NCBI GenBank assembly: GCA_023245335.1
Contig: JAHFKK010000001.1
Span: forward strand, 363,282-427,281
Source of the DNA: Candidatus Gottesmanbacteria bacterium
GTDB taxonomy: Bacteria; Patescibacteriota; Microgenomatia; UBA10105; UBA927
Direction: 5' to 3'
DNA: 64,000 nt
Below are positions 1,252 through 62,620 of this stretch, piece by piece. The notes below the pieces were generated by a model. It was not told the DNA's origin. It made no database searches and was given only the letters and a program-made list of their open reading frames with translations. How positions within the stretch are numbered: the stretch's first letter is position 1; the number at the start of each line of letters is the position of its first letter. A program made the translations under genes and the position numbers.

Positions 1252-1452
1252 TTATTGATAATACGTTTGTTTTGTTTCTAACTGATCCAATACACTTGTG
1301 TCAATTTTTGAGGACAAAGGGAGCACGACTTTTTGAAGCGGCTGGGCGACGGTTGATGTTTTGGTCGTCTTCACGAGTTCAAAAAATACCCACAGAAAAA
1401 CAGTGAGAGTCGTGAACACCGCGATGAGAAGTATGTCCCGATCTTCATCCAT
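1252..1452 (-). CDS. Small single-TM hypothetical protein, immediately downstream of pilO
   Basis: 66 aa ORF with a hydrophobic helix (ILLIAVFTTLTVFLWVFF), 3 nt after the pilO stop. Function not recognisable. Confidence 0.3.
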   Translation of the reverse strand: MDEDRDILLIAVFTTLTVFLWVFFELVKTTKTSTVAQPLQKVVLPLSSKIDTSVLDQLETKQTYYQ

Positions 1453-1455
1453 ATA

Positions 1456-2109
1456 TCATTGCAACGTGTAATATGATTTTAACCGAATAGATAATTGTAA
1501 CGCAGTATCTGACGAGTTTAGTGTAACACCTTGTCTTATAGATACCATATCTATAGTGGTTATACGCCGAAGTGTGATAAGACCGTCAAGAAATGCTTTG
1601 ATTGCAGTATAGGGTCCGGAAATAACCAAGCTGATGGTGAAATCCTGTAATGGTTGTCGCGCGATAAGTTTGGCTCCGGGAGTCGCGTCTTTGGTTGTGA
1701 GTGGTACGCCGGCTATCTGCATTGCTGATATGGACGCTTGAGATACGTTTGCGATATTTCTAAGCTCAACGGCCAGAATAGCGGGATCAGGACTGCGCGG
1801 AAGTGCATCAACGAGCAAGGGGAGACGTGACGCGATAGTTTCATAGGTCGCTTGCGCCTCTATAAGCGCGGTTATTTTTGCCTCCATTTGTTTATTGAGT
1901 GTCGTTTTGTCTTTAATTTCCCGCTGCAGGTATATGATTGTTTGTGCTGTGGGTCGGACCGCGTACCACAAAAATAGGGAAACGGCGAGGAACGAAAATA
2001 CTGCGGTTGTTGAAGCGCGCATCTTCGGTTTTTTCAGAAGCGGTGCGAGATCCTTGTAATACCGCCGTAATCTGGACGGAAGGGCGGATCGTTGTGTTGA
2101 ACTGTCCAT
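1456..2109 (-). CDS. pilO: Type IV pilus assembly protein PilO-like
   Basis: N-terminal TM (AVFSFLAVSLFLWYAV), then coiled coil (IYLQREIKDKTTLNKQMEAKITALIEAQ), then a C-terminal domain consistent with the PilO/PilN-family fold. I chose the ATG at 2109 so that it overlaps the pilN stop at 2114 by a few nt. The track ORF runs to 2190. Confidence 0.55.
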   Translation of the reverse strand: MDSSTQRSALPSRLRRYYKDLAPLLKKPKMRASTTAVFSFLAVSLFLWYAVRPTAQTIIYLQREIKDKTTLNKQMEAKITALIEAQATYETIASRLPLLVDALPRSPDPAILAVELRNIANVSQASISAMQIAGVPLTTKDATPGAKLIARQPLQDFTISLVISGPYTAIKAFLDGLITLRRITTIDMVSIRQGVTLNSSDTALQLSIRLKSYYTLQ

Positions 2110-2113
2110 AATA

Positions 2114-2665
2114 TTATTTTGCCTGTCCGACAGGCACGTCAGCCGTAATTTCAAAGACAATACCTGTCGTGGCCTGGCGGTTGATATCACTTAAGGAAAC
2201 ATTCTGAAGTTGCTTTGTTGCCTGAAGATTGGAAAGAAATTGCGCGAATCCCGTAGTCGTTCCCGCGCTTGCGCTTATAGTGAGCTTACCATTGTTAATG
2301 GTAAGAGAGGTGAGGTACACATCGGGTGGAAGTAGTGTGGCCATCATGTTTATGAGATCGACGGGCCTGGATTGGTTGATCATGAGTTTTTTCGTCGTAT
2401 CAAGGTTTGCCTGAAGCGATCGGATGGAAGTCTCAAATGATGTATTTGCTTCCAATATCGCTTGTTTTTGCGTCACTTCTTCGGTGAGATCGGTGTTTTT
2501 CCGATCCAGGCTGAATCGTGAGATAAACGCGAGAAGCACCATGATTTCCGTCGTGATCATGATATACCGTCCGTAGGTGGTAGCCCACGAAACGATACGG
2601 CCCCACGGCGTGTGCTCCAGGTCTTGTTGTCCAAGTAAATTAATCCGAATGGAATCGGCAGGCAT
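2114..2665 (-). CDS. pilN: Type IV pilus assembly protein PilN
   Basis: Starting at the internal Met gives an N-terminus MPADSIRINLL that carries the conserved PilN INLLP-like motif, which binds PilM. It is followed by a TM helix and a periplasmic domain. The track ORF runs to 2722. Confidence 0.65.
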   Translation of the reverse strand: MPADSIRINLLGQQDLEHTPWGRIVSWATTYGRYIMITTEIMVLLAFISRFSLDRKNTDLTEEVTQKQAILEANTSFETSIRSLQANLDTTKKLMINQSRPVDLINMMATLLPPDVYLTSLTINNGKLTISASAGTTTGFAQFLSNLQATKQLQNVSLSDINRQATTGIVFEITADVPVGQAK

Positions 2666-2728
2666 GAGTTCAGTATAGCAAGGGAGGCAAGATGAATAAA
2701 GCGTTGAACGCTCTTTTCCCAAAAGGCT

Positions 2729-2965
2729 TTACCTTTTGAGGAGTTTCGCGAGGCGTGACTTCAGACGGGCGGCGGTGTTTTTATGGATGCTGTGGTGTTT
2801 GGCCGCGCGATCGACCGCCTGATATGCCAGGGAAATGGTTTTTTCAGATGGAGCTTTGCGCGCTTTTTTCACTGAAGTAGTCAGTGTTTTCTTGATGTGC
2901 GCATTTTGGACAGACCGTACGCGGTCATGTCGGAGCTTTTTGGCGGCTTGTTTCGTGATTGGCAT
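2729..2965 (-). CDS. rpsT: 30S ribosomal protein S20
   Basis: 78 aa basic protein, MPITKQAAKKLRHDRVRSVQNAHIKK..., typical of S20. Confidence 0.85.
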   Translation of the reverse strand: MPITKQAAKKLRHDRVRSVQNAHIKKTLTTSVKKARKAPSEKTISLAYQAVDRAAKHHSIHKNTAARLKSRLAKLLKR

Positions 2966-3029
2966 GAGGTGAAGTATACCCCAGTTGACTCTTTCGGGTC
3001 AAGACGTTGCGATTTATAATAGGGAAGTT

Positions 3030-32548: not shown

Positions 32549-33193
32549 ATGAAGTTAGCTGAAATCGATGACATACCGATAGGCTTAGTCGATATAGCGG
32601 AGCACTATATTAGCGCTCCGGAATTGCGTGACTCGTTTCGATATGCCCGACGCCATATGCCGGTGTTTCGGAGAGAGCTCGGTGAGCTGGATCAAATTGT
32701 ATCTGCCATTAATACCACTGATGTGGCTCGCCTTCCTCAGGACATGGTGAACACACGACGGTTGAAAGGATATCTGAAAGCCACGAATAAACAGCTCCCC
32801 TTAATGCTCAACGAGGCGACCCAACGGGATCGTTTTCTTCAGAGTCGATATGCAAGAATGTTGCAAGAAGGAGACAAGTTGCTTGGCCCGTTTTTCCATT
32901 TCCATACGAATATCCATGCAGACGGGCGGCGGCTGTCGGCGGCAGTCATGGACGGTTACGGATTGTTTGTTCCGTTTATTTTGGGGAGAACAGGAGACTT
33001 ACTTAAGGAAACTCAAGGACTTGCCGTCAATGCATTATGTGAGGTATTAGCCGAATCGCAGGCAAAAAATATTCGACCATCACGGTTATTTACGAATACA
33101 AAGAGAAACGGTTGGTACAAGCCTGATTATGGGTTGCGTAGTGATTTCCTTGCAAGACACAACCTACTGAGCGAGTCCGGCGCATCAACGTAA
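32549..33193 (+). CDS. Hypothetical protein
   Basis: 214 aa ORF preceded by TTGATT-17-TATAAT at about 32505..32535. No recognisable family. Confidence 0.4.
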   Translation: MKLAEIDDIPIGLVDIAEHYISAPELRDSFRYARRHMPVFRRELGELDQIVSAINTTDVARLPQDMVNTRRLKGYLKATNKQLPLMLNEATQRDRFLQSRYARMLQEGDKLLGPFFHFHTNIHADGRRLSAAVMDGYGLFVPFILGRTGDLLKETQGLAVNALCEVLAESQAKNIRPSRLFTNTKRNGWYKPDYGLRSDFLARHNLLSESGAST

Positions 33194-33291
33194 GAAGCGA
33201 ATATAGTTAATACTCAAGGCAGTCTTGTCGCGGTAAATCTTGCCCGCGGATGTGATGGGTGAGAAGCAGTCGGTGATCCTATAAATACCAT

Positions 33292-33519
33292 TCATTTTCC
33301 ATTTAGACGACACCGTTCTTTTTTAACGTTCTTGCCTGTGCTTAGATGAGTCAGACGATTGTAATGTGGTAGCCCATCTATACTAATAGAGAAATTGTAG
33401 GCTGTGTCTTGATCGGCAAAGACTAGGATAGTTGTTGGTTCTGACGGCGATCCTAGCATGCGGTCGACTTTTTGAAGTCCTTCCGTGTCCCATTCCAGTC
33501 CTTCTAAGTGGATAAACAT
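33292..33519 (-). CDS. Small hypothetical ORF; may be a gene remnant
   Basis: 75 aa ORF in a 330 nt gap. No recognisable family. Confidence 0.2.
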   Translation of the reverse strand: MFIHLEGLEWDTEGLQKVDRMLGSPSEPTTILVFADQDTAYNFSISIDGLPHYNRLTHLSTGKNVKKERCRLNGK

Positions 33520-38838: not shown

Positions 38839-41268
38839 ATGAAGCTACCAAGCGCGCTTACCTCACTCATCAAAAAGAAGGAAGACGGAAAAGAATACTA
38901 CTTTTCCCTCTACATGGATGTCGATGCCGCAGCCGTTGCCGTGTGGAGCATGGATCCGGCCAAATTACCGACAATAGCCAGCTTCGCTCACGGCGTCGTA
39001 AAAGAGAATACCTGGGAAGCGCGGATACAGGTCATTGACCGGTTGTTGTCGGCCGCGGAAGACAAGGTAGGGGTAACAAAGGCGATCACCAAAACAGTTT
39101 TCGGCATGCCGGGCGCGTACCTCACTGCGGAAGGGAACATCGCTGATGAGATCCGGCCGCAGCTTAAAAAACTTGCACAGGTATTGGAACTTAAACCTGT
39201 GGGATTCGTTCCGTTGTCCCAAGCGCTTGCGTTTTCTCTCAAAAACGACGAAGGCGTACCGCCGAGCATCATCCTCATCGGGTGTTCCCAGAAAAATGCG
39301 CTCATCACCCTTTTTCGGGTCGGGAAACTTACCAGCCAGGATACGGTCGATCTCGCGGATGATCCGGCGGCTGTCGTGGAAGCGATCCTGAAAAAGAATC
39401 AGGATGGCGATGTGTTGCCTTCCCGGATGCTTCTGTACGGCGGGGATACCGTGAGACTCGAGGATGTACGGACGAAATTATTGAAACACCCCTGGCCCAC
39501 GCGGACAAACTTTCTCCACTTCCCGAAAATAGAGATCGTATCCGTAGAGTCGCTTCTCCACGCGGTTTCCCTGGCCGGGGCCGCGGAACTTGCTTCTGAC
39601 ATCGGGGAGCCGATTGAAGCCGCAGGAACGGTAGCGACGGTCGTTGCGCAACCGCGCCCGTCCATACTTCCCTCAGAGCCGGTCATTACACCTGCCGACA
39701 CGACTTCGGAAAAGGAAGAAGTGGAAGAAGAAGCGGTTGATGAGCGCGAAGAATCGGGTATCGCCAGTGCAGGTGAGGAAGAGGGAGAACCCGGTTCGTT
39801 GGAATCGGAAGCAGAAACAGTGGGTGATGCTATCGAAAAAGAAGAATCATCCGATGAAGAAGTCTCAAATGTAGAACTCGTGACACCCGAGTCTCTGGGA
39901 TTCCGGAAAGAAGACATACTGGAAAAAACTCCGGCTTCACATATGCCGCGGCCGGTCGTCGCGAAACCTATTAATCGTGAAGAGCTGGAAGAGGACGTAT
40001 TTGAGGAAGAAGACGAAGAAGAAGTGGAAGATACAAACGCAAAAAAGCCATTCAAATTGCCATTTAGCATTCCTACCGTCCGGGCGGATATGTTTGCTCC
40101 GGTCACACGCTTCCTGTCGCACCTTCGGTTTCCCAAAATGAAAAATACCATGTATATTTTCGGTGCTGTGGGTGTGGTACTTCTCTTGGGGGTCCTCTTT
40201 TATTTCGTCCCACGGGTCACGGTAACCGTTCTCGTATCGCCGCAGTCGGTGGACCAGTCGACGACGCTGACGGTCAATCCGACCGCAACTGTCGCAGACC
40301 CCGCGAGTAAAATCATACCGGGACACACGCAAAGCAAATCCATAAGCGGCGATAAAACAATTGCAGTGACCGGCAAGAAAAACGTCGGCGATCCGTCCAA
40401 GGGAACCGTGACTATCTATAATAAAGTCACGAATAGTAAGACGCTCCCTAAGGGAACGGTGCTTACGGGAAACAGTCTGTCATTTACTCTCGACAGTGAT
40501 GTTTCCATCGCTTCAGCCAGTGAAGACATAGGTTCCATCACCTTCGGAAAAGCGACCGCAAACGTCACCGCCAAAGACATAGGACCCAACGGCAATCTGC
40601 CGGCCGGCGTAGAATTCGTATTTACCGGTGTGAGTGGTTCGCAGGCATCAGCCCGGAACGATGCGGCATTTACCGGCGGCAACAGCAAATCAGTGACGGT
40701 CATTTCGCGCGCCGACCAGGACGGACTCGTGAAAGCCCTGACGGATGATTTGGTGGGGCAGGCGAAATCGCAGTTAGCCGCAAGTGCGACAGGCGGGGAG
40801 CATCTCATAGATGAAACGGTAAAAACTGCAGTGTCCGATAAGTCATTTGATCAGGAGATAGATCAGCAGGCGAGCCAGCTGCACGGCAAAATCACGATAA
40901 CGGTAAGCGGGATAAGCATAAGCGATGAAGACGTAAAAGCGATCCTTACGTCTCTGGTAGAAGGGAAAGTACCGGCAGGCTATGCCCTGGCGCCGGATCA
41001 AACCAATGTGTCGGTTTCCAACGTGACGGTCAAAAAAGACGGCTCCATAACGCTGACTGCGAAACTCACGGCGATCGCACTTCCGAAAGTCGACACCGAG
41101 GCACTTAAAACGACCCTCGCAGGAAAGGACGTCACCGCAGCGCTTACCATCCTCAAACAAACGACCGGGGTAGCAGGGGCAGAGTATAAGTTTGCGTTTT
41201 CGCCCGTGCAAAGCCGGTTGCCCATGAACCGCAACAATATCACCATTACCACAGCAGTCCAGCGATAG
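38839..41268 (+). CDS. Bitopic membrane protein: actin-like (FtsA/PilM-like) cytoplasmic N-domain, acidic linker, one TM, large beta-rich extracellular domain
   Basis: N-terminal 260 aa look like a degenerate FtsA/PilM ASKHA fold (YYFSLYMDVDAAAVAVWSMD; IILIGCSQKNALITLFRVGKL; MLLYGGDTVRLEDV). Glu-rich linker. TM helix IFGAVGVVLLLGVLFYFV. About 390 aa Thr/Val/Ser-rich ectodomain. Confidence 0.45.
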   Translation: MKLPSALTSLIKKKEDGKEYYFSLYMDVDAAAVAVWSMDPAKLPTIASFAHGVVKENTWEARIQVIDRLLSAAEDKVGVTKAITKTVFGMPGAYLTAEGNIADEIRPQLKKLAQVLELKPVGFVPLSQALAFSLKNDEGVPPSIILIGCSQKNALITLFRVGKLTSQDTVDLADDPAAVVEAILKKNQDGDVLPSRMLLYGGDTVRLEDVRTKLLKHPWPTRTNFLHFPKIEIVSVESLLHAVSLAGAAELASDIGEPIEAAGTVATVVAQPRPSILPSEPVITPADTTSEKEEVEEEAVDEREESGIASAGEEEGEPGSLESEAETVGDAIEKEESSDEEVSNVELVTPESLGFRKEDILEKTPASHMPRPVVAKPINREELEEDVFEEEDEEEVEDTNAKKPFKLPFSIPTVRADMFAPVTRFLSHLRFPKMKNTMYIFGAVGVVLLLGVLFYFVPRVTVTVLVSPQSVDQSTTLTVNPTATVADPASKIIPGHTQSKSISGDKTIAVTGKKNVGDPSKGTVTIYNKVTNSKTLPKGTVLTGNSLSFTLDSDVSIASASEDIGSITFGKATANVTAKDIGPNGNLPAGVEFVFTGVSGSQASARNDAAFTGGNSKSVTVISRADQDGLVKALTDDLVGQAKSQLAASATGGEHLIDETVKTAVSDKSFDQEIDQQASQLHGKITITVSGISISDEDVKAILTSLVEGKVPAGYALAPDQTNVSVSNVTVKKDGSITLTAKLTAIALPKVDTEALKTTLAGKDVTAALTILKQTTGVAGAEYKFAFSPVQSRLPMNRNNITITTAVQR

Positions 41269-41287
41269 CTCACCAGTATATTGTTCA

Positions 41288-41502
41288 GCGCATAATTTGT
41301 GTGCGCACGCCAAGCGTTGGTAATCCACGGGTGACGGTCGCGAGAGCATCCTGCGATGAGTCCGCACTTCGGAGTGAGACGTAGCAGCATGGAGAAATAG
41401 TTATTATTTCACGAACGAATTGAGGCGAATCGCGGGACACGCGACCGGCAGGCCCCGCAATCTCGTTTCCTTCGCGTGGCGTGTCTTACACAAATTACGC
41501 GC
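41288..41502. ncRNA. Candidate structured RNA (6S-like?) or MITE-like element bounded by a 27 bp interrupted inverted repeat
   Basis: GCGCATAATTTGTGTG at 41288..41303 pairs with TACACAAATTACGCGC at 41487..41502 (15 of 16 pairs). The stem extends through CGCACGCCAAGCG at 41304..41316 pairing with CGCGTGGCGTG at 41474..41484. The interior has the CACU-UCGG-AGUG hairpin. No convincing ORF. Lies in the 288 nt gap before the sortase gene. Confidence 0.3.
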
Positions 41503-41550
41503 CTCACTACATATATAAGGTGATATGATGGTCTATACTCAATTGAACCT

Positions 41551-42255
41551 ATGGTGATGTACCGTTACGTCAAAGCAGTACGAAAAAAGCCCATCTCCAG
41601 GCCGGTTGTCATATCCTATGTGCTCATGCTGATGGGACTTGGCGTCATCACATGGACGATTTGGCCGATCGTATCGTTTTTCGCTTTTGATCAGATCATG
41701 TATGCCCAGACCGTGAGTCCGGTCGAAAACAGCAGTGTCCGTCCGGCGGCGCCGCTTGCGTATGCGGAAGCAGGAGGAGCCACGACCGATCCCAATACGT
41801 GGTTCCCGACCCAACCGCAGAAAAAAGTCGTGGCCCCCGTCACGAGTTATTCGCTTTCTATCCCGTCACTTGGCATACAGAGTGCAACGGTTACTATTGC
41901 CGGGGATGACCTCGGCAAAAGCCTCATCCATTACGGAGGAACGGGACTTCCGGGTGAGTACGGCAATACCGTCATTTTCGGGCACTCCACGCTGCCGCAG
42001 CTTTTCCGCGGGACCAAAGACTATCATGCGGTATTTGCGACCTTGCCGACCATAAAAAACGGGACCGATATCCTCATTACCTATGACGGGGTGAAGTATC
42101 GGTACATCGTATATGATAAAGTTGTTGTAGAGCCCACAGATCTCACACCGCTTGAGCAGCAGTTCGATGATTCATATCTCACGCTCGTGACCTGTGTGCC
42201 GCCCGGAACATTTCTGTATCGGCTAAACGTCAAAGCGCGGTTAGAAAGGATTTAA
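41551..42255 (+). CDS. Sortase (class E/B-like transpeptidase)
   Basis: N-terminal TM, the His motif GNTVIFGHST, the catalytic Cys motif LTLVTC, and a downstream Arg (VKARLERI). Confidence 0.85.
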   Translation: MVMYRYVKAVRKKPISRPVVISYVLMLMGLGVITWTIWPIVSFFAFDQIMYAQTVSPVENSSVRPAAPLAYAEAGGATTDPNTWFPTQPQKKVVAPVTSYSLSIPSLGIQSATVTIAGDDLGKSLIHYGGTGLPGEYGNTVIFGHSTLPQLFRGTKDYHAVFATLPTIKNGTDILITYDGVKYRYIVYDKVVVEPTDLTPLEQQFDDSYLTLVTCVPPGTFLYRLNVKARLERI

Positions 42256-42259
42256 TCAT

Positions 42260-43519
42260 ATGACTCAAAAAGGTGAACAGAAGGCAATAGATGCCATCAA
42301 AAAAAAGTTAGTCGGTAAAAAGCTGAGCTACAATGAAATTTTTTCCATCATGGACGAAATATCCAATAAGGATCTTTCTCCCGTCCTCACTACATATTTT
42401 GCCGCGGCAGGATTTAAGGAAGGATTCTCCGATGAAGAGCTGTACTTTTTGACCAAAGCGATGATCAATACCGGACCCAAGCTTAAGTTCCCTGGGGTGG
42501 TCGCGGACAAGCATTCGACCGGCGGTGTCGCCGGGACGCGTACGACGATGATCGTCGTCCCGATTATCGCCGCCGCAGGACTCACCATACCGAAGACTTC
42601 CTCGAGGGCGATCACGTCTCCGTCGGGAACGGCGGACACGATGGAAGTGGTAGCGCCGGTTGATCTTTCTCTTGAGAAGATTACGCATATCGTCAAAAAA
42701 GTCGGCGGTTGTATCGTCTGGGGCGGACATGTGGGGTTGGCACCCGCGGATGATATCCTCATCCAGGTCGAACGCCCGTTAGGATTCGAATCGTACGACA
42801 AAATTATCGTTTCCGTGATGGCCAAAAAAGTAGCATCGGGCGCGAATCATATCATCATCGATATTCCCGTGGGGCCGACCATGAAGATTCAGCATTTCAA
42901 AGACGCGGAACTCATCGCCAAGAAGTTCGCGCTCTTGGCCAAAAAATTTGGCGTCAAAATGATTTTTGACATAAACGAAACACGCCAAAACGCCGGCCGC
43001 GGTATCGGACCGGTCCTCGAAGCGCGTGACGTATTTGAAGTTTTGGAGCAGGCGCCGGAGCGCCCTCTTGCACTTGAGGCAAAGGCGCTGAGGCTCGCCG
43101 GCAAATTACTGACGCTTTGTTACGCGGACATACCGGGTAAAAAGTCTTTGGACGGCGAAGAAACCGCGCGGGAGATGCTGTCTTCCGGGAAAGCGCTCAA
43201 AAAAATGAAGGAAATCATCAAAGCCCAGGGCGGGAATCCCAACGTGGTGAGTAGTAAACTCGTCCCAGGTAATCACAAATATGAACTCAAATCACCGCGT
43301 CACGGGATAGTCTCTGCCATAGATAATCAGCAGATTACCGTCATATGCAGGATTCTCGGGAACCCCACGGACAAAAAGGCCGGTATGTATCTCAACCGAA
43401 AACTTGAAGAGACGGTGGATACGGGTGATATACTAGGGACGTTTTATAGTTCGGATGCGTGGCGCCTGAAGGAAGCCGCGGAAACGTTGAAAACTATGCC
43501 GATATTTCATGTAGAATAG
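42260..43519 (+). CDS. deoA: DeoA-family nucleoside phosphorylase (thymidine/pyrimidine-nucleoside or AMP phosphorylase)
   Basis: The phosphate-binding signature appears as VADKHSTGGVAG, and the glycosyltransferase family 3 fold is present along the length. Confidence 0.8.
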   Translation: MTQKGEQKAIDAIKKKLVGKKLSYNEIFSIMDEISNKDLSPVLTTYFAAAGFKEGFSDEELYFLTKAMINTGPKLKFPGVVADKHSTGGVAGTRTTMIVVPIIAAAGLTIPKTSSRAITSPSGTADTMEVVAPVDLSLEKITHIVKKVGGCIVWGGHVGLAPADDILIQVERPLGFESYDKIIVSVMAKKVASGANHIIIDIPVGPTMKIQHFKDAELIAKKFALLAKKFGVKMIFDINETRQNAGRGIGPVLEARDVFEVLEQAPERPLALEAKALRLAGKLLTLCYADIPGKKSLDGEETAREMLSSGKALKKMKEIIKAQGGNPNVVSSKLVPGNHKYELKSPRHGIVSAIDNQQITVICRILGNPTDKKAGMYLNRKLEETVDTGDILGTFYSSDAWRLKEAAETLKTMPIFHVE

Positions 43520-43532
43520 AACGGTAACAGAT

Positions 43533-43724
43533 ATGCTCAAAAATATTTTAGGTCCGGTTCAAGCGTGGCTACTTGCCCAGGGCAAATGCGTGGGTTGCGG
43601 CAAGATTCTTCCTGTCAAAGAAGGCAAAGGTATGCAGCGCGTCGATTGCGCATGCGGCAGAATTTATATGTATGATCCGGCTGCACACAAATACCGGAGG
43701 GCGCTTCTCGATGAAATCAAATAG
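43533..43724 (+). CDS. Small zinc-ribbon protein
   Basis: 63 aa with CVGCG...CAC, a four-Cys ribbon. Overlaps the mltG start by 14 nt. Confidence 0.4.
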   Translation: MLKNILGPVQAWLLAQGKCVGCGKILPVKEGKGMQRVDCACGRIYMYDPAAHKYRRALLDEIK

Positions 43725-44700
43725 TACCAACATATTCTTCTCTCGGGTCATCGTATTTCTTCTGGTGATAGCGGTCGGCATCGTGGTTTTCTTTGGCTGG
43801 TGGGGGACAAGCACACAGGCCGTCGACCCTATGGATCCCGCGCCGATATCGTTTACCGTGCATCCCGGGGATGGAGTGCGGGTGATCGCGGCTAACCTCG
43901 CGACCTATCGGCTCATCCGGAGCCCCACGGCATTTTTTGTTCTCGTCAAAGTCATGGGGATAGAGAAAAACCTGCAGGCGGGAGATTTCCGGCTCAACAA
44001 AACGATGGACAGTAAGACCGTCGCTCAGCAATTGACGCACGGATTTGAGGATATCTGGGTGACGGTACTGGAGGGCTGGCGCAATGAGGAAATTGCCGTC
44101 GTCCTTGCCAAAAATCTGGATATCCCCGAAAGCGAGTTTCTGAAAGTTTCCCATGAGGGGTACATGTTTCCGGACACGTATCGTATCCCGCACGACGCTT
44201 CGGCCGGAGCAGTCGTTAATATGTTCCGGACAACATTTGATGCAAAAGTGACGGATGCCATGAAGGCCTCGGCAGTGAAACACGGACTGACGGTCGATCA
44301 GATGGTGACACTCGCGTCCCTGGTTGAGCGCGAAGGGCATAATGATCAGGATCGCCCGGTCATAGCGGGCATACTCCTCAAGCGTCTGAAAGCCAATTGG
44401 CCGCTTCAGGTCGACGCCACGCTTCAGTTCTCGTTGGGATATCAGTCAAGTGATAAGAGCTGGTGGAAAAAAGAACTTACTGATGATGACCGGAAAATTG
44501 CATCGCCGTACAATACATACCTCAATCCCGGACTGCCGCCGGGCCCCATCTGTAACCCCGGCCTTTCATCTCTTAATGCCGTCGCAAACCCCAAGGATTC
44601 CGACTACTGGTATTATCTGCATGATACGTCGGGAGCTATCCATTACGCGAAGACCATCGAGGAACATAATGCGAATATCGCGAAATTTCTCCGCGGGTAA
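43711..44700 (+). CDS. mltG: Endolytic murein transglycosylase MltG (YceG family)
   Basis: N-terminal TM followed by a YceG domain with C-terminal YYLHDTSGAIHYAKTIEEHNANI. Start set at the internal Met MKSNST. Confidence 0.85.
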   Translation: MKSNSTNIFFSRVIVFLLVIAVGIVVFFGWWGTSTQAVDPMDPAPISFTVHPGDGVRVIAANLATYRLIRSPTAFFVLVKVMGIEKNLQAGDFRLNKTMDSKTVAQQLTHGFEDIWVTVLEGWRNEEIAVVLAKNLDIPESEFLKVSHEGYMFPDTYRIPHDASAGAVVNMFRTTFDAKVTDAMKASAVKHGLTVDQMVTLASLVEREGHNDQDRPVIAGILLKRLKANWPLQVDATLQFSLGYQSSDKSWWKKELTDDDRKIASPYNTYLNPGLPPGPICNPGLSSLNAVANPKDSDYWYYLHDTSGAIHYAKTIEEHNANIAKFLRG

Positions 44701-47647: not shown

Positions 47648-47684
47648 TGAATCGTTTGTTTCGCATTCCCTTTCTATGTTAAGG

Positions 47685-47735
47685 TTGACATATGTTTTAA
47701 CATATGTTAATATATGAGTTGTACTTAACATATGG
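47685..47735 (+). promoter_or_regulatory. Promoter TTGACA-17-TAATAT interleaved with three ACATATG-core palindromic operator repeats
   Basis: TTGACATATGTT at 47685..47696, the perfect 14 bp palindrome TTAACATATGTTAA at 47697..47710, and TTAACATATGG at 47725..47735, which overlaps the ATG of the HTH gene. Confidence 0.6.
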
Positions 47736-50518: not shown

Positions 50519-50995
50519 ATGGTTAAAAACATCGTTATTCTCGTTCTGGTTGTTCTTGCTGCAGGTGAAGGATACTTCCTCATGCATAAATCCAATGGTC
50601 CCATGGTACAGGGCGCAGAGCGCGAAAATGCGCAGCAGCCTCGTCCCAGCGGCGCTCCAAACAGGCCGCCGATCCTAGGTAAAGGCGATAAGCTTATGGG
50701 ATCGCCCTTAGAGAAATTTGCATTTAAGATCGCGCCAGGAGATATACCTCCTGAATCCCAAGCCAAACTCACCGGCTTTGCCGTGAAGTCGACGAAACTT
50801 GCTGACGGATCGGAGCAGGTCTCGCTCACGCCGAAAGATGCGGATGATCAGTTCCAACAGTATACCGTCAAACCCGGCCAAGTACTCTATTTCATAGAGA
50901 TGACGGGGTCAGATGATGTCGGCAGTCAGGATTTGGATAAGAACTATCGCGATGACTACGGCATGATCACCGACGCAAACGGCGTGATCCAGTAA
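50519..50995 (+). CDS. Hypothetical secreted protein
   Basis: N-terminal signal/TM (IVILVLVVLAAGEGYF). Promoter TTGACA-16-TAATAT upstream at about 50486..50513. Confidence 0.45.
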   Translation: MVKNIVILVLVVLAAGEGYFLMHKSNGPMVQGAERENAQQPRPSGAPNRPPILGKGDKLMGSPLEKFAFKIAPGDIPPESQAKLTGFAVKSTKLADGSEQVSLTPKDADDQFQQYTVKPGQVLYFIEMTGSDDVGSQDLDKNYRDDYGMITDANGVIQ

Positions 50996-51341
50996 CGTCA
51001 TCCCCCAAACCGTCCTCAACCTCCGATTTGGCAAATATACCCGTTTCAGGTATAATATTAGGCCTATAGGACAGCCTATGACAGGAAAATCATCATCAGC
51101 GAAGGAATCAGTCCCCAGTGTTCTCATCCTCCTTGGACGGACACCAGAAGGCATGGGGTCATTCCTTACGCGTGCCGCAGGAAGGACTGTGCCATTCGAT
51201 GTGGATTATCCACGACTCAAGGCACAACCAGATGTACAACCAGCAACCGGCGCGCGCGCTTCTATAGCCCGACGCGTGGCTGCGCTCAAAAGGGCATTTG
51301 GAATTTAAGTTTTTTTCATTGAGCACAATTTATCGATCTCT

Positions 51342-51704
51342 ATGCCATCAGTACAGAAATTACTACGTAGTGTGAAGCGGGCTAGGAACGAGCTGTTTCG
51401 CGAATCCAAAAATTTGCCTCCGGGTTATTGCGATTTTATAAATAGACCGGTGTCAGAATTCGCATCAGAGAGCCATATCTGGCGCAGTAACGAACCTGCA
51501 GAGATCGGTGATTATCCCTCTCATTTGGTTGCGTCCATCCATACACGCGGGAAGGGCGGTGTCATCATCCAATTCTCCGGAAGCAATAAGAAAGATAGAG
51601 GTATCGTGTTGGGAAGTGTTACCGACATCGAGAACAACGATGAAGTCGTCAAAGCTCTGGAAGAGAAAACCAGAAGGAGAGGATGGAAGTTAGAATTAGA
51701 ATAG
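51342..51704 (+). CDS. Hypothetical protein
   Basis: 120 aa ORF. A promoter TTGGCA-17-TATAAT at about 51030..51060 lies upstream of this cluster. No family recognised. Confidence 0.35.
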   Translation: MPSVQKLLRSVKRARNELFRESKNLPPGYCDFINRPVSEFASESHIWRSNEPAEIGDYPSHLVASIHTRGKGGVIIQFSGSNKKDRGIVLGSVTDIENNDEVVKALEEKTRRRGWKLELE

Positions 51705-51748
51705 GTTTCATTGTCCCGAGCGTGTAAAGTAAGACAGAAATTATTGGT

Positions 51749-52024
51749 ATGCCAATCATAGACGCCATTTCAGCCGAGAAATTAGCAGCGTTGCGAAAAA
51801 TTGGTTCGGATGTGGAAGCACGCAAGAAACAGGAAGCTGCAGATATCCAGCTGGCACTTAGTCTCGGCGAAGAACCCGGCAAACTTACGCACGATCAGCT
51901 TGAGACGTTATTAGATATACAAATGGGCGGAAAGGGAGACCATATCTCGCATCAGGTTATCAGGCGTAAGCTCTGGAAAGGCCATAAGTTCAGTTTCCGC
52001 ATGGCCGGACAGAAAACCAGGTAA
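51749..52024 (+). CDS. Hypothetical protein
   Basis: 91 aa ORF. No family recognised. Confidence 0.3.
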   Translation: MPIIDAISAEKLAALRKIGSDVEARKKQEAADIQLALSLGEEPGKLTHDQLETLLDIQMGGKGDHISHQVIRRKLWKGHKFSFRMAGQKTR

Positions 52025-52030
52025 GGGGAT

Positions 52031-52267
52031 TTAGCGGCCGACAGGATGCAATCGTGTACCCACGCCCCAGTTACGTAGCATCATTTTGGCGAATCGGGGG
52101 TCCAGCCATTCTGCCCTTCTTAGTATCCCCAGATCACGTCGGCCATTTTTATCTTCTATCGCGATCTCGACTTTGCCGGCGAAGCCGGGCTGGACGAGTA
52201 ACCGCGCCCGGTGTGTATTGCCGGATGCTTCATGTACCGTTGCAGTAAACCTTTTTTCGTCAAACAT
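52031..52267 (-). CDS. Hypothetical protein
   Basis: 78 aa ORF, convergent with the previous ORF. No family recognised. Confidence 0.3.
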   Translation of the reverse strand: MFDEKRFTATVHEASGNTHRARLLVQPGFAGKVEIAIEDKNGRRDLGILRRAEWLDPRFAKMMLRNWGVGTRLHPVGR

Positions 52268-52356
52268 ATGTCGTCGGCGGGCTGGTTGCGCCTATAGTAC
52301 CACAAGAAGCTATTTATGGAAAATATACGCAACATAGAGTGGTATAGTGGGATGGT

Positions 52357-52623
52357 ATGGCAAGACGCAGACTGACGTGGGATAGCGACGTCGTACTCAC
52401 GGTACGCATACGGAAATATCTCTGGCATGAGTTTGTACAGGACGTATGTATCGCGATATACGTGGTCTATATTCTATTGAATTCCTTGTCGAAACGGCTC
52501 TTCCATTGTCCCGTCCGGGAATCCTTGAAACGTTTACTCCACGGTATCAAATGGGCTTTCTGGATTTGGTTAGCTGGCGTATGGACCTACCTTCTTGTAG
52601 CCAGCGCCTTTGGTTGGCGCTAA
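52357..52623 (+). CDS. Hypothetical small membrane protein
   Basis: 88 aa with two hydrophobic helices. Confidence 0.3.
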   Translation: MARRRLTWDSDVVLTVRIRKYLWHEFVQDVCIAIYVVYILLNSLSKRLFHCPVRESLKRLLHGIKWAFWIWLAGVWTYLLVASAFGWR

Positions 52624-52665
52624 TAGTCGTGTAGACCTTGGAGGTAAAGAATAGAAAAGTTCAAT

Positions 52666-53421
52666 ATGGCTAAATTTATCGGAGGGACTAGTAAATATCT
52701 AATCCAGCAAAAATTTTATTACATGCTGGGAGGGTATCTTCTCATGATTTGTCTTGTGGTCGCGTTGCTGTGGTATTGGGTGTTTATACTCCATTTTGTC
52801 CACAATATTTGGGTTATTTTGACAGCTACGATAGTTTTTCTTATCGTTTACAAGGTCATTACTTACTTTGTTAATGACGGGATGAAGCACGAATTTGCTT
52901 TTGGTTATGGGATAACCGGTGAAGCAAAAGTAGCAGAGGAACTCAACCGTTTACCCGCCAGCTACACAGTTATTCAAGATGTGAAACTTTCAGATACAAA
53001 GACAAACATTGATTTTGTAGTCCTTGGCCCAAATGGAATATGGGCAGTTGAAGTAAAAAGTCACAAAGGCAATATCACTTATGATGGAAGCCGGTTGTTG
53101 AGATATGGCCGGCCACTCGAAAAGAATTTTATCGGTCAGTCACGTCTCGAGGCTACCGCGCTAACTGATTATCTTCAGTCACATATAGACCGTCACATAT
53201 ATGTTGATTCACTCCTCGTATTTTCAAGTCCAAAAGCGACCATGCGCTTTGGTGAGCACCCGATACAAGATGTGGTTATAATTGGTGCTTCATGGCTTAA
53301 CCGGCATATCCTTGAACATCAGTCGCAAATTAAGTTTACACCGCAGGATATCGACCAAATTGCACGTGTCCTGCAATTAGAAAAAATAGATGGTAGTAAA
53401 CCTGCAATGGGTGTAAAATAG
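52666..53421 (+). CDS. NERD (nuclease-related domain) protein with N-terminal TM helices
   Basis: Three N-terminal hydrophobic helices, then a NERD-like core (GEAKVAEELNRL...IDFVVLGPNGIWAVEVKSHKGNI). AT-rich. Confidence 0.65.
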   Translation: MAKFIGGTSKYLIQQKFYYMLGGYLLMICLVVALLWYWVFILHFVHNIWVILTATIVFLIVYKVITYFVNDGMKHEFAFGYGITGEAKVAEELNRLPASYTVIQDVKLSDTKTNIDFVVLGPNGIWAVEVKSHKGNITYDGSRLLRYGRPLEKNFIGQSRLEATALTDYLQSHIDRHIYVDSLLVFSSPKATMRFGEHPIQDVVIIGASWLNRHILEHQSQIKFTPQDIDQIARVLQLEKIDGSKPAMGVK

Positions 53422-57391: not shown

Positions 57392-57847
57392 ATGAAAACC
57401 CCTTCATTTTTTCTTCCTGACCAAGACGGCAAGACACATTCTATGTCTGACTACCGAGGTAAATGGGTAGTGGTGTACTTCTACCCCAAAGACGATACGC
57501 CGGGGTGCACGAAGGAAGCATGCGGGTTCCGGGATTTCGGCGCTGACTTTGCCAAACGGGGAGTCGTGATACTTGGGATATCCAAAGACAGTGTGGAGTC
57601 CCACAAAAAGTTTGCGGACAAATACAAGCTCACTTTCCCGCTCCTTGCCGACGTCGACCACAAAGTGGCCGAAAGCTTTGGCGCGTGGGGAGTGAAGAAG
57701 TTTATGGGTCGAGAATTTACCGGAGTACTACGTAACACTTATATCATTAATCCCACGGGTGAAATCGTGAAGATGTATGAAGGCGTGAATCCCCTAGTGC
57801 ACGCGAAAGAAGTACTCGCGGACCTGCCGGGATTAATGAGCGTGTGA
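57392..57847 (+). CDS. bcp: Thiol peroxidase Bcp (peroxiredoxin)
   Basis: YFYPKDDTPGCTKEACGFRD carries the peroxidatic and resolving Cys motif. 151 aa. Confidence 0.85.
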   Translation: MKTPSFFLPDQDGKTHSMSDYRGKWVVVYFYPKDDTPGCTKEACGFRDFGADFAKRGVVILGISKDSVESHKKFADKYKLTFPLLADVDHKVAESFGAWGVKKFMGREFTGVLRNTYIINPTGEIVKMYEGVNPLVHAKEVLADLPGLMSV

Positions 57848-57911
57848 TGGTTGCCTCTCTACTTACCGAATTCTATATTCGGCGATCGGGTGGTATGATT
57901 ATGGTACGATT

Positions 57912-58154
57912 TTGTCTATGAAACTATTCCGTTACCGTAAGCCGTCTATGAACACGATCCTTGGAATTACCCGAGTGAAGCGATCCATACGGAAAGCAAC
58001 GGGAGTGAGTACCATCGAGCGATATACGAAGCCCAGCAGGATCAAACAATCCATCAAACAAAAGGTGGGTCTCTATAGTCCGACCATGACGGTTGTCCGC
58101 CAGACGTCCAAAGGGAAGCTGCCGTCGTTTTTTGGATTGTTTGGGAAAAAGTGA
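57912..58154 (+). CDS. Small basic hypothetical protein
   Basis: 80 aa, Lys/Arg-rich. Confidence 0.3.
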   Translation: MSMKLFRYRKPSMNTILGITRVKRSIRKATGVSTIERYTKPSRIKQSIKQKVGLYSPTMTVVRQTSKGKLPSFFGLFGKK

Positions 58155-58182
58155 TATAAACGTCTGGAAGATTCTTTAGCAT

Positions 58183-58557
58183 ATGGAAGCCACGTTAAAC
58201 CAGGAAACGAATAAGCCCAATCCTATTTCCCTCAAAGAATGGTTCCTCATGGATACCGACGAGCAGAAGGATTTTTTTGGTAATCTGTCTTTTCGGGAGA
58301 AGAATGATTTTATGATCGCCCAGAGTAATTATTACCAGGAACTGCCGAAGGCAGAAAAGCAGGCACTCATCCAGGCGAGGATAGATAAGCTGAGCGGGAA
58401 AAAAGACCAAACGCTTAAAGATAAAGCGGAATTAGGTGCCATGAAATCGGCACTCGGTCACGCGGAATCTCCGAAGCCTCCCAAGCCCGGCGGGGAAAAG
58501 GGAATCGTCGCGAAAATCAGAACAGTTTCCAGTCCCTACCTCATACGATCCGTCTGA
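58183..58557 (+). CDS. Hypothetical protein
   Basis: 124 aa, charged and helical. No family recognised. Confidence 0.35.
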   Translation: MEATLNQETNKPNPISLKEWFLMDTDEQKDFFGNLSFREKNDFMIAQSNYYQELPKAEKQALIQARIDKLSGKKDQTLKDKAELGAMKSALGHAESPKPPKPGGEKGIVAKIRTVSSPYLIRSV

Positions 58558-58564
58558 CGGAGGA

Positions 58565-58873
58565 TTACTTCTGTTCCGGAGAAATCTGACTTCCGACTTT
58601 TATATCGTGTGCGTGTACCGTGCCCGCCGGTACTTCGATGACGGTATAGTATCGTGGGTTCCAGAGGAAGAATCGATTGGGCGGCAGGCTTTTTTTCATA
58701 CAGACAACGCGGTTGTGGGTGTCTAAAATCAGGACATCAATCGGGTGTCTCACCCCGAACGTGTGGATGCCCCATCGTGTCGTAAACATGACGGGAGATA
58801 TGGACTCCGCGCCGATGAGGCCCACAGATTTTTCCCGGAAGGTCCGTAACGTTTTTACTTTGAGTCGTATCAT
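58565..58873 (-). CDS. DUF192-family protein
   Basis: The DUF192 pattern (MIRLKVK...FTTRWGIHTFGVRHPIDVLILDTHNRVV...VIEVPAG...IKVG) matches the COG1430 family. Confidence 0.55.
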   Translation of the reverse strand: MIRLKVKTLRTFREKSVGLIGAESISPVMFTTRWGIHTFGVRHPIDVLILDTHNRVVCMKKSLPPNRFFLWNPRYYTVIEVPAGTVHAHDIKVGSQISPEQK

Positions 58874-59751: not shown

Positions 59752-60192
59752 ATGAGTATAACAAATATCCTTCACAAGAGCGGTGCGGTGTCGTATACTC
59801 CGTGGCAGCATATGCTGAAAGGATTTTCAAAAAAAGAACAGGAGTCTTTGGGACAAGTCCTGCGGATGATCGCGGAGAATCGGACTCCTGTGACGACCAT
59901 GGTTAAGCTGGATACGAGAAGAACGACCTACATAACGACCAGATTAGGTCCCGATCTTTTTTCTATCCAGAAAGTAAGCGGGAGAAGGATTGTGCTGATA
60001 CCGATCGGCAGTCATACGGAAATATCTACGCGAGACGATCGTTTCGTCGTAGATGATATGCGTCCGCGGGACGGGCACACTGCCGGAGTACTTATCAGAA
60101 GTGAACACGGCCGCCATATGATAGAGCCGCAAAACAAGTTGCGGGAGATTCCCCTGTTGGGAACCGTTGTGTATCGTAAGTCAGACTGGTGA
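59752..60192 (+). CDS. Hypothetical protein
   Basis: 146 aa ORF. No family recognised. Confidence 0.3.
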   Translation: MSITNILHKSGAVSYTPWQHMLKGFSKKEQESLGQVLRMIAENRTPVTTMVKLDTRRTTYITTRLGPDLFSIQKVSGRRIVLIPIGSHTEISTRDDRFVVDDMRPRDGHTAGVLIRSEHGRHMIEPQNKLREIPLLGTVVYRKSDW

Positions 60193-60400
60193 GAAGCGAG
60201 CGCCCTCAGCTTGTTTTCAGGTTGATCCGTTACTATTCCCATACTTGAGCATCCGCCTGGCCAGCTTCCCCGCCTGATCCAAGGAAACGGGACCGGAGAG
60301 GACGACGACTGAAGGCGGAGCCAAGGAACTTTATTAAAAAAAAGATTATAAGACCCTCTTTCGCACAAGGCTTCGGGGGGGCACGGAAGGACACAATATT

Positions 60401-60814
60401 ATGAAAGATACGTCACATGTGGCACTGGTTATTGCAGTCGCACTCATCGTAGGAGCGGCGGGATTTTTCGTCGGTGTGCATGTAGCTAACCGCAGACTTA
60501 CCGGAGCATGGGGGAATGAAAGACCCATGATGGGACAGCGGATGGGTATGATGCGCGGACGCGGATCCGGGGGATACGGAACGAGATCCGGCGGCATGAT
60601 GGGGGCAGGCGGTCAGATAACCGCGATAAGCGGCAATACCGTCACACTCAAGGCGACAAACGGTACCACTAGTACTGTGATACTTTCTGATGGTGCGGTC
60701 GTCGATACGATGACTAAAGGTACGGCCAAAGATCTCAAAGTCGGTCAGAACATACTGGTTACCGGCGGAGGATTCTGGAACGGTGCTGAGACGGTCATAG
60801 TACGGCCACAATAA
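60401..60814 (+). CDS. Secreted DUF5666-like protein with Gly/Met-rich low-complexity region
   Basis: Signal/TM, then a GMMRGRGSGGYG region, then ITAISGNTVTLKATNGTTSTVILSDGAVV...GQNILVTG, which is typical of DUF5666. Confidence 0.5.
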   Translation: MKDTSHVALVIAVALIVGAAGFFVGVHVANRRLTGAWGNERPMMGQRMGMMRGRGSGGYGTRSGGMMGAGGQITAISGNTVTLKATNGTTSTVILSDGAVVDTMTKGTAKDLKVGQNILVTGGGFWNGAETVIVRPQ

Positions 60815-61135
60815 AGGTCAGAGATATTTTTTAGACGCTTCTCGTGTCACCAAGCCAGTGAGCATTTCTCGATTCGGGCGGCGACGGATACGGTTTAACC
60901 CAGCCGAAGAAGTCAGTAGAAGGTGTTTTCGGATCTGTGGATGCATGGTGATAGAGTTGGAGATGTAAAAACAGTTGCTGCGTCGCTATCGCTTCCGATG
61001 TGAAGCGCTCGTGGTAACGGCACCCATTCGCTCCGCAAATAGCCTCATGAAGTTCTTGTTTCATAGCCAGCCGTTATTATACAACGCTGCGCAATAGTAT
61101 GGATTAAACACGCATTCGGGGAGAAAGGAGGTCCG

Positions 61136-61687
61136 CTAACGGGCGTCTTCTGCGTCCGGTGGTTCAGGAGGGAGGAATTCCTCACCGTTGGGTCCGCCCG
61201 GCTTCACATATTCTCCGGGTTTAAGCCATTGCACGTAGGTGCAGCCGGTCGCCTGTTTTTTCTCCCGGTCCCAGCCGCTTGTCGAGCATTTCTTCATCTT
61301 TTTGCCTGATGATGTCGTATAGAGGACGAGCTTACTGCCGCAGTCCGGACAGATTTCGTCGAGCGGTTCGGTCGTGCCGTTTATCCACTCAACATAATCG
61401 CAGCCCTCCGCCTTTTTGGTTTCCTTGTTCCAGATATTCGTCGAGCATTTCTTCATTTTTTTGCCGAAGCGCGTTACGACGAGGACGAGTGGAGAGCCGC
61501 ATTTGGGACACTTCTCATCGAGGGCCTGGGGTTCCGGTGTAAACCACTTTACGTAATCACAGCCTTCATTTTTTTTGGTTTCCGGATTCCATCGACCGGT
61601 ACTACACCGCTGTAGTTGTTTGCCGGATTTCGTCGTCTGGATCTCGCCGAGCGGGTTACCGCATTTGGGACACATATCTGTAGCCAT
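61136..61687 (-). CDS. Protein made of three tandem topoisomerase-type C4 zinc-ribbon modules
   Basis: Three repeats of about 56 aa, each CP(K/D)CG..L.....GKKMKKCST..W..E.K...GC.YV.W. The repeats are also visible at DNA level with a period of about 168 nt, for example 61272..61301 against 61439..61469. Confidence 0.7.
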   Translation of the reverse strand: MATDMCPKCGNPLGEIQTTKSGKQLQRCSTGRWNPETKKNEGCDYVKWFTPEPQALDEKCPKCGSPLVLVVTRFGKKMKKCSTNIWNKETKKAEGCDYVEWINGTTEPLDEICPDCGSKLVLYTTSSGKKMKKCSTSGWDREKKQATGCTYVQWLKPGEYVKPGGPNGEEFLPPEPPDAEDAR

Positions 61688-62048
61688 AGGAAAAACTATA
61701 CCAGACTACACATCGTTTGCATACAGAGGAATTATGATATGTCGGTATGAGGAGTGATTATTTATTCACAATCATTCGATAGAAGATGTATACTCTCCGA
61801 AACGATGGATAACGTCACGCTTGGTAAAATATTTAAAGAGCGGGGGTGGGCCCCCACCCCGGAGGAAGTTCGGCCGGTCAATACAGATCGCCCAGTACGA
61901 CGACGCGGATTCCATCTCGTTTTTATATCTACGGAGGAATTAGTGCGTATATTCATGAAACAGGATTTCCAGTACGGCGGGCCGAATTATCGACGTATAA
62001 GGCACGGGAAACACAGTCCCCGGCGGGGATAAGATCACCCGCGAGAAA

Positions 62049-62414
62049 CTACGCACCTGCTTTGCGTATTTGTTCCTCAGTCATGCCGAAGTGGTGTCCT
62101 ATTTCATGGAGCACGGTTTTTTTCACCTGTTCTTTTATGACTTCCGGATTGTCGCCGAATATGGCAAGCATGGGACCCGCGAAAATGATGATTTTGTCCG
62201 GTACGGCAGCAGTATAGTTGCCGCGTTTGGTTTGCGGGATGCCGCGATAGAGGCCAAAGAGCGTAGACCCGGGCCCGGCGCCGCCGGCTGACAGTTCTTC
62301 CGGAGTCGGCCAGATTTCTGCAAGTACTTCCACGTTATCCAGGCTTTTGGCAAACTGCGCGGGTAACCCATCCAGGGCCGTAGCGATAAGTTCTTCAAAT
62401 TCCGTGAGTGTCAT
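62049..62414 (-). CDS. Zincin-like minimal metallopeptidase (HEIGHHFG)
   Basis: VLHEIGHHFGMTEEQIRKAG carries the HExxH zinc-binding motif. About 120 aa, COG3824-like. Confidence 0.7.
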   Translation of the reverse strand: MTLTEFEELIATALDGLPAQFAKSLDNVEVLAEIWPTPEELSAGGAGPGSTLFGLYRGIPQTKRGNYTAAVPDKIIIFAGPMLAIFGDNPEVIKEQVKKTVLHEIGHHFGMTEEQIRKAGA

Positions 62415-62480
62415 GGATGTATTGTAATGCGCTCAAAAGAATTTTTCACTGCAGTGCGCAGGGTAGTTGATCTGACTCTT

Positions 62481-62584
62481 TTTGATTTTCTTATAGGGTT
62501 GTGTATAGTGGATATAGTATGTTCGATTTCGAACAGAATAATCGTGAGATATAAATCGTTAGCCGCCGTATTTGGCGGTTTTTT
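62481..62584 (+). ncRNA. Candidate small RNA or leader: promoter TTGATT-16-TATAGT, about 70 nt transcript, intrinsic terminator
   Basis: TTGATT at 62481..62486 and TATAGT at 62503..62508. Internal hairpin CGATTT...AAATCG. Terminator stem GCCGCC at 62562..62567 pairs with GGCGGT at 62574..62579, followed by TTTTTT at 62579..62584. The RBS and ATG of the next gene follow at 62621. Confidence 0.3.
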
Positions 62585-62620
62585 GTGGAAAATACTTTTT
62601 TGAGAGGAGGTGAAAACATA

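Follow-up and report, generated by a model that had tools for sequence, protein, structure and literature searches.

A lineage-specific foldback element in the spacer between the up809 and sortase genes of a Gottesmanbacteria genome

The question raised by this locus is what kind of element a 215-bp imperfect palindrome represents that separates two genes of Candidatus Gottesmanbacteria. The earlier note on this DNA had offered two answers, a 6S-like or novel non-coding RNA and a transposable element of the miniature inverted-repeat kind (MITE). Candidate phyla radiation genomes are small and tightly packed, and descriptions of small non-coding elements, mobile or palindromic, hardly exist for these bacteria; full-text literature on Patescibacteria together with MITEs contained incidental mentions only. 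The window, i.e. the whole stretch of 64 kb analysed here, has a G+C content of 49%, and the best relatives of its genes are found in Patescibacteria, mostly in Candidatus Gottesmanbacteria.

The spacer and the fold of the element

The element (41288-41502, plus strand) is a non-coding imperfect palindrome in the spacer between the upstream gene, here called up809 (38839-41268), and a sortase gene (41551-42255), both on the plus strand. The product of up809 is an 809-aa CPR membrane protein with a weak Baseplate_J-like match. The sortase was identified by Pfam PF04203 (E 5e-20), its closest homologue in the public gene collection being 82% identical, and the gene following it is AMP/thymidine-phosphorylase-like. 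The block AlaRS-up809-sortase-phosphorylase is kept in Gottesmanbacteria, Woesebacteria and Roizmanbacteria loci. In the window (38839-44700) and the loci compared with it (L001-L083) the conserved block further includes a 63-aa ORF and then YceG/MltG. Because the up809 stop and the sortase start are separated by only 2-11 nt in most loci, the two genes are suggested to be functionally coupled, the membrane protein possibly being the substrate or a partner of the sortase.

The spacer of the window (41269-41550) measures about 282 nt. A left remnant of the ancestral spacer (41269-41287), which ends in TCA, directly follows the up809 stop codon TAG (41266-41268), and a right remnant (41503-41550) contains a CTCAC box, TATATAA and AAGGTGATATGATGG and is common to relatives. 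Upstream of the sortase gene, a 10-codon ORF (41525-41557; MMVYTQLNLW*) was seen after a Shine-Dalgarno-like box AAGGTGA. Its TGA overlaps the sortase start region ATGGTGATG (UGAUG, with ATG at 41557), which could mean either translational coupling or a mis-set sortase start codon. The GTGATATGATGG box upstream of the sortase gene is common to the window and locus L082.

The outer closing stem is formed by a left arm (41288-41316) and a right arm (41474-41502), which constitute the terminal inverted repeat. The pairing of these arms, reported in the earlier note, is real: they were recovered by the repeat search and are also paired in the fold. The outermost part pairs GCGCATAATTTGTGTG (41288-41303) with TACACAAATTACGCGC (41487-41502), and 15 of its 16 positions match, 14 of them as Watson-Crick pairs and one, the terminal one, as G-U; the single A-C mismatch lies at 41292/41498. 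Past a bulge of 1x2 nt, 8 + 3 more pairs join 41305-41316 with 41474-41484, so that the earlier description of 16 bp with one A-C mismatch, a bulge and 11 further bp matches the sequence. The arm pattern GCGCRTAATTTGTGT occurs in the 64-kb window only at the two arms.

The pairing extends beyond the arms described earlier, through the whole element. When the left half was aligned with the reverse complement of the right half, 70 of the 88 aligned positions were Watson-Crick matches, corresponding to an arm identity of 80%, with indels; the mismatches between the arms are mostly transversions and not wobble-preserving. The minimum free energy (MFE) structure of the plus strand is a single interrupted rod of 75 bp, almost identical to the centroid, with internal loops of 3x7 and 4x0 nt as the largest. 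Its energy of -93.8 kcal/mol compares with -71.4 +/- 4.4 in dinucleotide shuffles (z -5.14), and none of the 200 shuffles folded as well. Also the minus strand (z -4.45), the element folded with DNA parameters (z -4.47) and the whole up809-sortase spacer (z -4.2) gave strong folds.

The rod contains an inner core, which also proved to be the part common to a distant relative (see below). The 5' strand of the core (41328-41357) consists of H1 CGGG (41328-41331), a loop UGA, H2 CGGUCGCG (41335-41342), a loop AGAGCA and H3 UCCUGCGAU (41349-41357). The 3' strand (41429-41458) consists of H3 AUCGCGGGA (41429-41437), H2 CGCGACCG (41440-41447), a loop GCAGGC and H1 CCCG (41454-41457). The apical part of the rod (41358-41428) is variable; it includes two tandem G-A/A-G mismatches (41358-59 with 41427-28, and 41372-73 with 41413-14) and ends in an A/U-rich terminal loop of 14 nt. 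A CACU-UCGG-AGUG hairpin had been described from this part, and the segment is indeed present (CACUUCGGAGUG, 41365-41376), but the plus-strand MFE structure pairs it across the rod, and the hairpin forms solely in the minus-strand fold.

The view that the element has no credible ORF held up well. The ORFs inside it have 27-51 codons and no homologues: six-frame translations compared with 5.8 billion proteins gave no homologue at E<=10, and the 51-codon ORF compared with 1.84 billion representatives gave only long repeat proteins, which are noise.

A chance inverted repeat or an assembly artefact, to which the single-copy state of the element would be suited, is scarcely credible. None of the shuffles reached its folding energy, and the palindrome is imperfect, internal and small, unlike the perfect foldback artefacts found at contig ends. 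Also, a related core is present in an independent assembly.

Elsewhere in the window, an A/T-rich palindrome with 29-nt arms, no spacer and 72% complementarity (47675-47732) was found between an ORF ending at 47647 and an ORF starting at 47955; it may be an operator or promoter region. A second long-range inverted repeat (33139-33425) was rejected, since its fold did not surpass that of shuffles (z +0.7) and it runs into the end of a gene. The whole 64-kb window has no tRNA gene, and the stretches without an ORF of at least 150 codons are approximately 50995-52666, 57847-58870, 59811-61136 and 61687-62585.

Insertion into a normally short spacer

The distance between up809 and the sortase gene was compared among the 76 loci in which up809 still adjoins the sortase gene. 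It is at most 121 nt (from 2 nt upwards) in 75 of these and at most 11 nt in 40, and the element is absent from the orthologous spacer in all 76. The three closest relatives, with sortase identities of 82, 79 and 77%, have spacers of 58, 106 and 66 nt, respectively, compared with the 282 nt of the window, and also lack the element. The presence or absence of the element is thus polymorphic relative to loci with 74-82% sortase identity.

To the right of 41502 the spacer is homologous to that of L082 and those of L002, L009 and L013, including the CTCAC box, TATATAA and the box upstream of the sortase gene. When precisely 41288-41502 is taken out, 76 nt from the stop codon to the first sortase codons remain (41266-41287 joined to 41503-41556), with 55 identities to L082. 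From this alignment together with the homology of the right flank, the insertion is inferred to begin and end where the inverted repeat does, although the left flank aligns only weakly with L082. The element is therefore a lineage-specific insertion between two normally adjacent genes.

The flanks were also inspected for a target-site duplication. TCA occurs at 41285-41287 and at 41504-41506, the latter offset by one base beyond the right arm, and the flanks carry a loose direct repeat (CTCACCAGTATAT and CTCACTACATATAT); neither of these is convincing.

The sole exception to the short spacers among the 76 loci was L001 (JAKAFY010000004.1), in which an unrelated 1.56-kb insertion (1436-3000) occupies the same spacer. 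It contains three ORFs of 56 aa, 193 aa and 234 aa, of which the last was guessed from its sequence to resemble an Asp/Glu racemase. Because this unrelated insert is at the same spot, the up809-sortase junction appears to be a recurrent insertion site.

In the spacers of L002, L009 and L013 (approximately 2880-3000 in each locus), up809 is followed by two hairpins, one of them terminator-like (AAAACC...GGTTTTTT), and then by a CTCTCAC box and a -10-like box TATATAAT upstream of the sortase gene. Since these spacers hold both a terminator-like hairpin and a -10-like box, up809 and the sortase gene may have been transcriptionally uncoupled in this clade already before the insertion. Overlong spacers were also found between AlaRS and up809 in L042 (204-575), L024 (619-755), L051 (454-567) and L070 (590-712). 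Their hairpins, with z about -3 to -4.6 (L042 -4.0, L024 -4.3, L070 -4.5), are unrelated to each other and to the element, the one of L070 being a 123-nt A/T-rich rod. Hairpin-forming spacer insertions may be common in this group.

These hairpins bear on the explanation that the element was made and enlarged locally, e.g. by a template-switch inverted duplication, and acts in cis on the up809-sortase transcript as a 3'-end stabiliser, a processing site or an attenuator, without being mobile. The smaller, unrelated hairpins of L002, L009 and L013 lie at the same place, just upstream of the CTCAC box, the expanded spacers of L042, L024 and L070 have strong unrelated hairpins of their own, and the searches found no other copy of the whole element, all of which would suit a local origin. 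However, no similarity links either half of the element to the spacers of relatives or to other sequence of the window, and the stem is not followed by a U-tract. Furthermore, a related core is found inverted in a different spacer of another locus, L034, and a purely local origin leaves this unexplained. Such an origin is accordingly considered improbable.

Known RNAs, other copies and a distant relative

In its length of 215 nt, its long closing stem and its general shape of a rod the element is similar to 6S RNA. The earlier note had suggested a 6S-like RNA, which would mean a divergent ssrS product sequestering the RNA polymerase holoenzyme by open-promoter mimicry. The suggestion fared poorly. 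Searching the whole 64-kb window against Rfam (4227 families) at the gathering score gave no matches, and at E<=10 the 401 nt of 41200-41600 gave no match to the 6S model (RF00013) and only a spurious match to mir-8521 (15.7 bits). Because 6S sequences diverge fast, failure to match the model is not conclusive. Other features point in the same direction, however. The large central bubble that mimics an open promoter, with at least 10 nt per side, is absent from both the plus-strand MFE structure and the centroid, in which the rod is continuous with internal loops of at most 3x7 and 4x0 nt. No sigma-70-like promoter was found on either strand of the element. It is absent at the same locus in all relatives and undetected in their sampled DNA: covariance model (CM) searches of 84 loci and 48 kb of contigs from the closest relatives gave no match except for the core of L034. 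A 6S RNA is thus very improbable.

Other known classes were considered as well. A retron msr/msd was rejected on inspection of the sequence as there is no reverse transcriptase next door, and an integron attC site as the element exceeds the length of such sites and has no R-box (GTTRRRY/RYYYAAC). Also by inspection, a kink-turn in the GA/GCAGG loop was dismissed, the bulged strand lacking a G-A step. SRP RNA was set aside in view of the missing domain IV motif and the lack of an Rfam match, and a viroid-like or ribozyme-bearing element in view of the lack of an Rfam ribozyme match.

Within the 64-kb window no second copy was found with the arm pattern (allowing 2 mismatches), with blastn at word size 7 or with R1, a covariance model that combines the single element sequence with its rod-like fold. 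When 80 syntenic GTDB loci were compared with the element by blastn, a 26-nt HSP in L034 was the only match, and about 640 kb of related loci contained no further copy beyond this diverged core. Copies were also not found in 47.7 kb of contigs from the three closest relatives, in two L034-like contigs, or by blastn in phage and plasmid collections. The arm-plus-inner-stem pattern gave one match in the JGI metagenomes, taken as chance: it lies on a low-GC contig upstream of a dihydrolipoamide dehydrogenase-like gene and has no second arm. In viral contigs the two-arm pattern had 7 AT-rich chance matches without similarity to the element, and the 20-mer of the core had 3 matches in high-GC phage contigs, with CM scores of at most 10 bits, which were likewise regarded as chance. 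No transposase or insertion sequence (IS) with these terminal repeats is present within the 64-kb window.

The one relative was detected in several ways. R1, searched over the window and 84 loci (594 kb), gave a single further match, which lies at 548-735 of L034, on its minus strand (23.8 bits; E about 8e-4, roughly calibrated and concerning a homology between two sequences only). The match spans model positions 34-181, the outer stem remaining outside. A sequence-only local alignment of the element with L034 scored 37, the maximum among 40 dinucleotide-shuffled queries being 36. The blastn HSP has 23 identities in 26 positions, and in 640 kb the 20-mer ACGCGACnGGCAGGnCCCGC, with three mismatches allowed, occurs only in the 3' core strand of the element and in L034. 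The partner strand of L034 has CGGGTGAC and GCGAG in register.

The L034 copy represents a second insertion, located one gene away, in the spacer between AlaRS and up809, and in opposite orientation relative to the flanking genes. This spacer measures 265 nt, compared with at most 88 nt in 51 of 57 loci, and approximately 60 nt of it, on the side of up809, can be aligned with the corresponding spacer of L061, which has 74 nt. The sortase of L034 is about 53-56% identical to that of the window. Relatives nearer to L034 were sought with the N-terminus of its up809, the best match having 54% identity, and a two-sequence core model (R2) run over 590 kb found no new member. R2 picked up, as an alternative alignment, a motif GGTGA..GGA.CGAGG that occurs twice in direct orientation in L034 (613-590 and 735-712, minus strand; UGCGGGUGACAGGAGCGAGG and AUUGGUGAGGGACGAGG). 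A shared ATATTGT 5' of both copies was set aside as not interpretable because two alternative alignments exist.

Both copies have H1 (CGGG/CCCG), an asymmetric loop with GA opposite GCAGG, H2, a second loop and H3, and the internal-loop sequences are kept between them. They share 21 pairs, of which 14 are invariant. One pair has changed on one side (U-G to C-G), four have changed on both sides and still pair (G-C to A-U, C-G to G-U, G-C to C-G and U-A to A-U), and two have turned into a tandem G-A/A-G mismatch in L034. All four changes in the 3' strand are opposite changed 5' positions, which would be improbable had the two strands drifted independently (p about 0.006 by our own hypergeometric estimate), and 95% of the cells are paired, compared with 29-43% when the 3' partner is slid by 1-3 columns; the shuffle control for the core pairing, with two sequences, had a floor of 35/500. 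Within the core, either copy has a single G-U pair; these pairs and the tandem G-A mismatches are all on the same strand, that of the model. The remaining parts differ. The outer closing stem is not common to L034, in which H1 abuts the AlaRS stop codon, and the apical part is not alignable, with 41 nt in the model alignment compared with 84 nt in L034. In comparison with shuffles, the fold of the L034 copy is not significantly stronger (z -0.9 to -1.6), as would be expected for an older or decaying copy.

These findings also bear on the idea, raised in the earlier note, of a novel non-coding RNA, here understood as an independent gene for a structured small RNA of a new class, which may bind a protein, with a conserved inner core, a lineage-specific outer stem and a variable position. 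The strong fold, in which centroid and MFE structure agree, would fit such a gene, as would the four two-sided compensatory changes that keep H2 and H3 paired, the conserved unpaired loop nucleotides and the restriction of the G-U pairs and tandem G-A mismatches to one model strand. The differing orientation relative to the neighbours at the two loci suits an independent gene better than a cis element, and one extra match among 84 sampled loci of 6.7 kb agrees roughly with the expectation for a single-copy gene placed at random. On the other hand, neither a sigma-70-like promoter nor an intrinsic terminator was found on either strand at either locus; the scan for terminators was negative throughout the element, the stem of which is followed by CUCACUACAUAUAUAAGG. 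Also the facts that no relative has the element in the orthologous spacer and that 48 kb of contigs from the closest relatives do not contain it, the lack of Rfam matches (the L034 spacer gave nothing usable at E<=10), the weak fold of the L034 copy and the mostly transversional mismatches between the arms speak against it. An RNA gene of this kind is regarded as unlikely, but is the main rival of the reading preferred below. Doubtful, too, is the narrower proposal that the inner core, from H1 and the GA/GCAGG loop to H2 and H3, is the functional part of an undescribed structured RNA of Gottesmanbacteria or Microgenomates. This core RNA would probably bind a protein; its positions would not be conserved, its outer stem would be lineage-specific, and in most relatives it would be too divergent for searches with a single sequence.

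Interpretation and likeness to known elements

The reading preferred here, with a probability of roughly one half, is a sparse, low-copy mobile foldback element resembling MITEs and the ERIC and Correia elements, which would form a long hairpin in read-through mRNA. It is favoured because a strongly folding, non-coding imperfect palindrome has been inserted with limits at its repeat ends, a relative exists at another site, the pairing is kept and transcription signals are lacking. In this view, the 215-bp element inserted, in this lineage only, into the short up809-sortase spacer, and belongs to a sparse family whose other member, a diverged inner core, lies in the AlaRS-up809 spacer of L034. 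With neither a promoter nor a terminator of its own, the element would owe its transcription to read-through from up809. In the mRNA it would fold into an interrupted hairpin of about 75 bp between the two cistrons, providing double-stranded RNA of the kind that is cut by RNase III or that blocks 3' exonucleases; a hairpin of this kind would uncouple up809 and the sortase gene. Expression of the sortase would then rely on the 48 nt of ancestral sequence kept upstream of its gene.

The MITE suggestion of the earlier note survives in part. The element is 215 bp long (below about 500 bp), has no coding capacity, and carries terminal inverted repeats at the ends of a clean lineage-specific insert, and a diverged relative is present at a different site, in a different orientation and in a different genome. 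The many near-identical copies that the earlier note had named as the sign of a MITE were, however, not found in any of the sequence sets, the window, the related loci, the phage and plasmid collections, the metagenomes and the proteins all having been searched with negative results: copies at different sites amount to one in 64 kb and one diverged, inverted core in L034. In a classical MITE the terminal repeats are the most conserved part. The points against a textbook MITE are that the conserved part is not the terminal repeats, which the L034 relative lacks, and that there is no clear target-site duplication, no partner IS within the window and no further full copy in the sequences searched. 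Furthermore, the compensatory changes 40-70 nt inside the ends, the strand-consistent G-U pairs and the tandem G-A mismatches would be explained more readily by selection acting on a folded strand than by simple selfish DNA.

Since the family has two members at present, the element is a minor, lineage-specific feature and a modest curiosity. It splits a gene pair that is kept across at least three candidate phyla and is thereby a concrete example of operon uncoupling, and hairpin insertions of this kind could seed new regulatory RNA structure. Should the core turn out to be a genuine RNA gene, a further class of structured RNA would be gained for a group with very few known ones.

In comparison with known systems, 6S RNA (RF00013) is like the element in its size of about 200 nt, its closing stem of the 5' and 3' ends and its rod shape, but it has a central bubble, a promoter of its own and conservation among relatives. 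In the REPIN or BIME type, REP sequences occur in pairs that are moved by RAYT transposases. A REPIN has a length of about 70-120 nt and a conserved GTAG-type 5' tetranucleotide, and REPINs occur in many copies with a RAYT gene alongside. REPINs share with the element a long hairpin, conserved bulges, strand-specific features and compensatory pairing; the tetranucleotide, the many copies and the RAYT gene were not seen here.

The Correia elements of Neisseria (CREE or NEMIS) are about 100-150 bp long with terminal inverted repeats of approximately 26 bp, and they are found between co-transcribed genes, within mRNAs in which RNase III binds or cuts the paired repeats and changes the expression of the neighbours (PMC2649163; PMC10969869). 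This mechanism, RNase III acting on paired repeats, is the one proposed above for the element. Further features of Correia elements are a duplicated TA target, an IHF site and ends that form promoters, and their copies number hundreds; nothing of this was found for the element. Their pairing is at the ends, whereas that of the element runs its whole length.

The ERIC or IRU elements of Enterobacteriaceae, 127-bp imperfect palindromes classed as MITEs, are like the element non-coding and intergenic, form one long hairpin when co-transcribed, are present or absent at orthologous sites and have no transposase. They are multi-copy, with tens to hundreds of copies per genome (PMC10969869), in contrast to one copy in 64 kb here, and there is no sequence similarity between the two. 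Bacterial MITEs can nevertheless be as rare as one copy per genome (PMC10969869). The element, which is longer than ERIC (215 bp) and belongs to Patescibacteria, is a sparse addition to a known kind of element, in an under-studied phylum.
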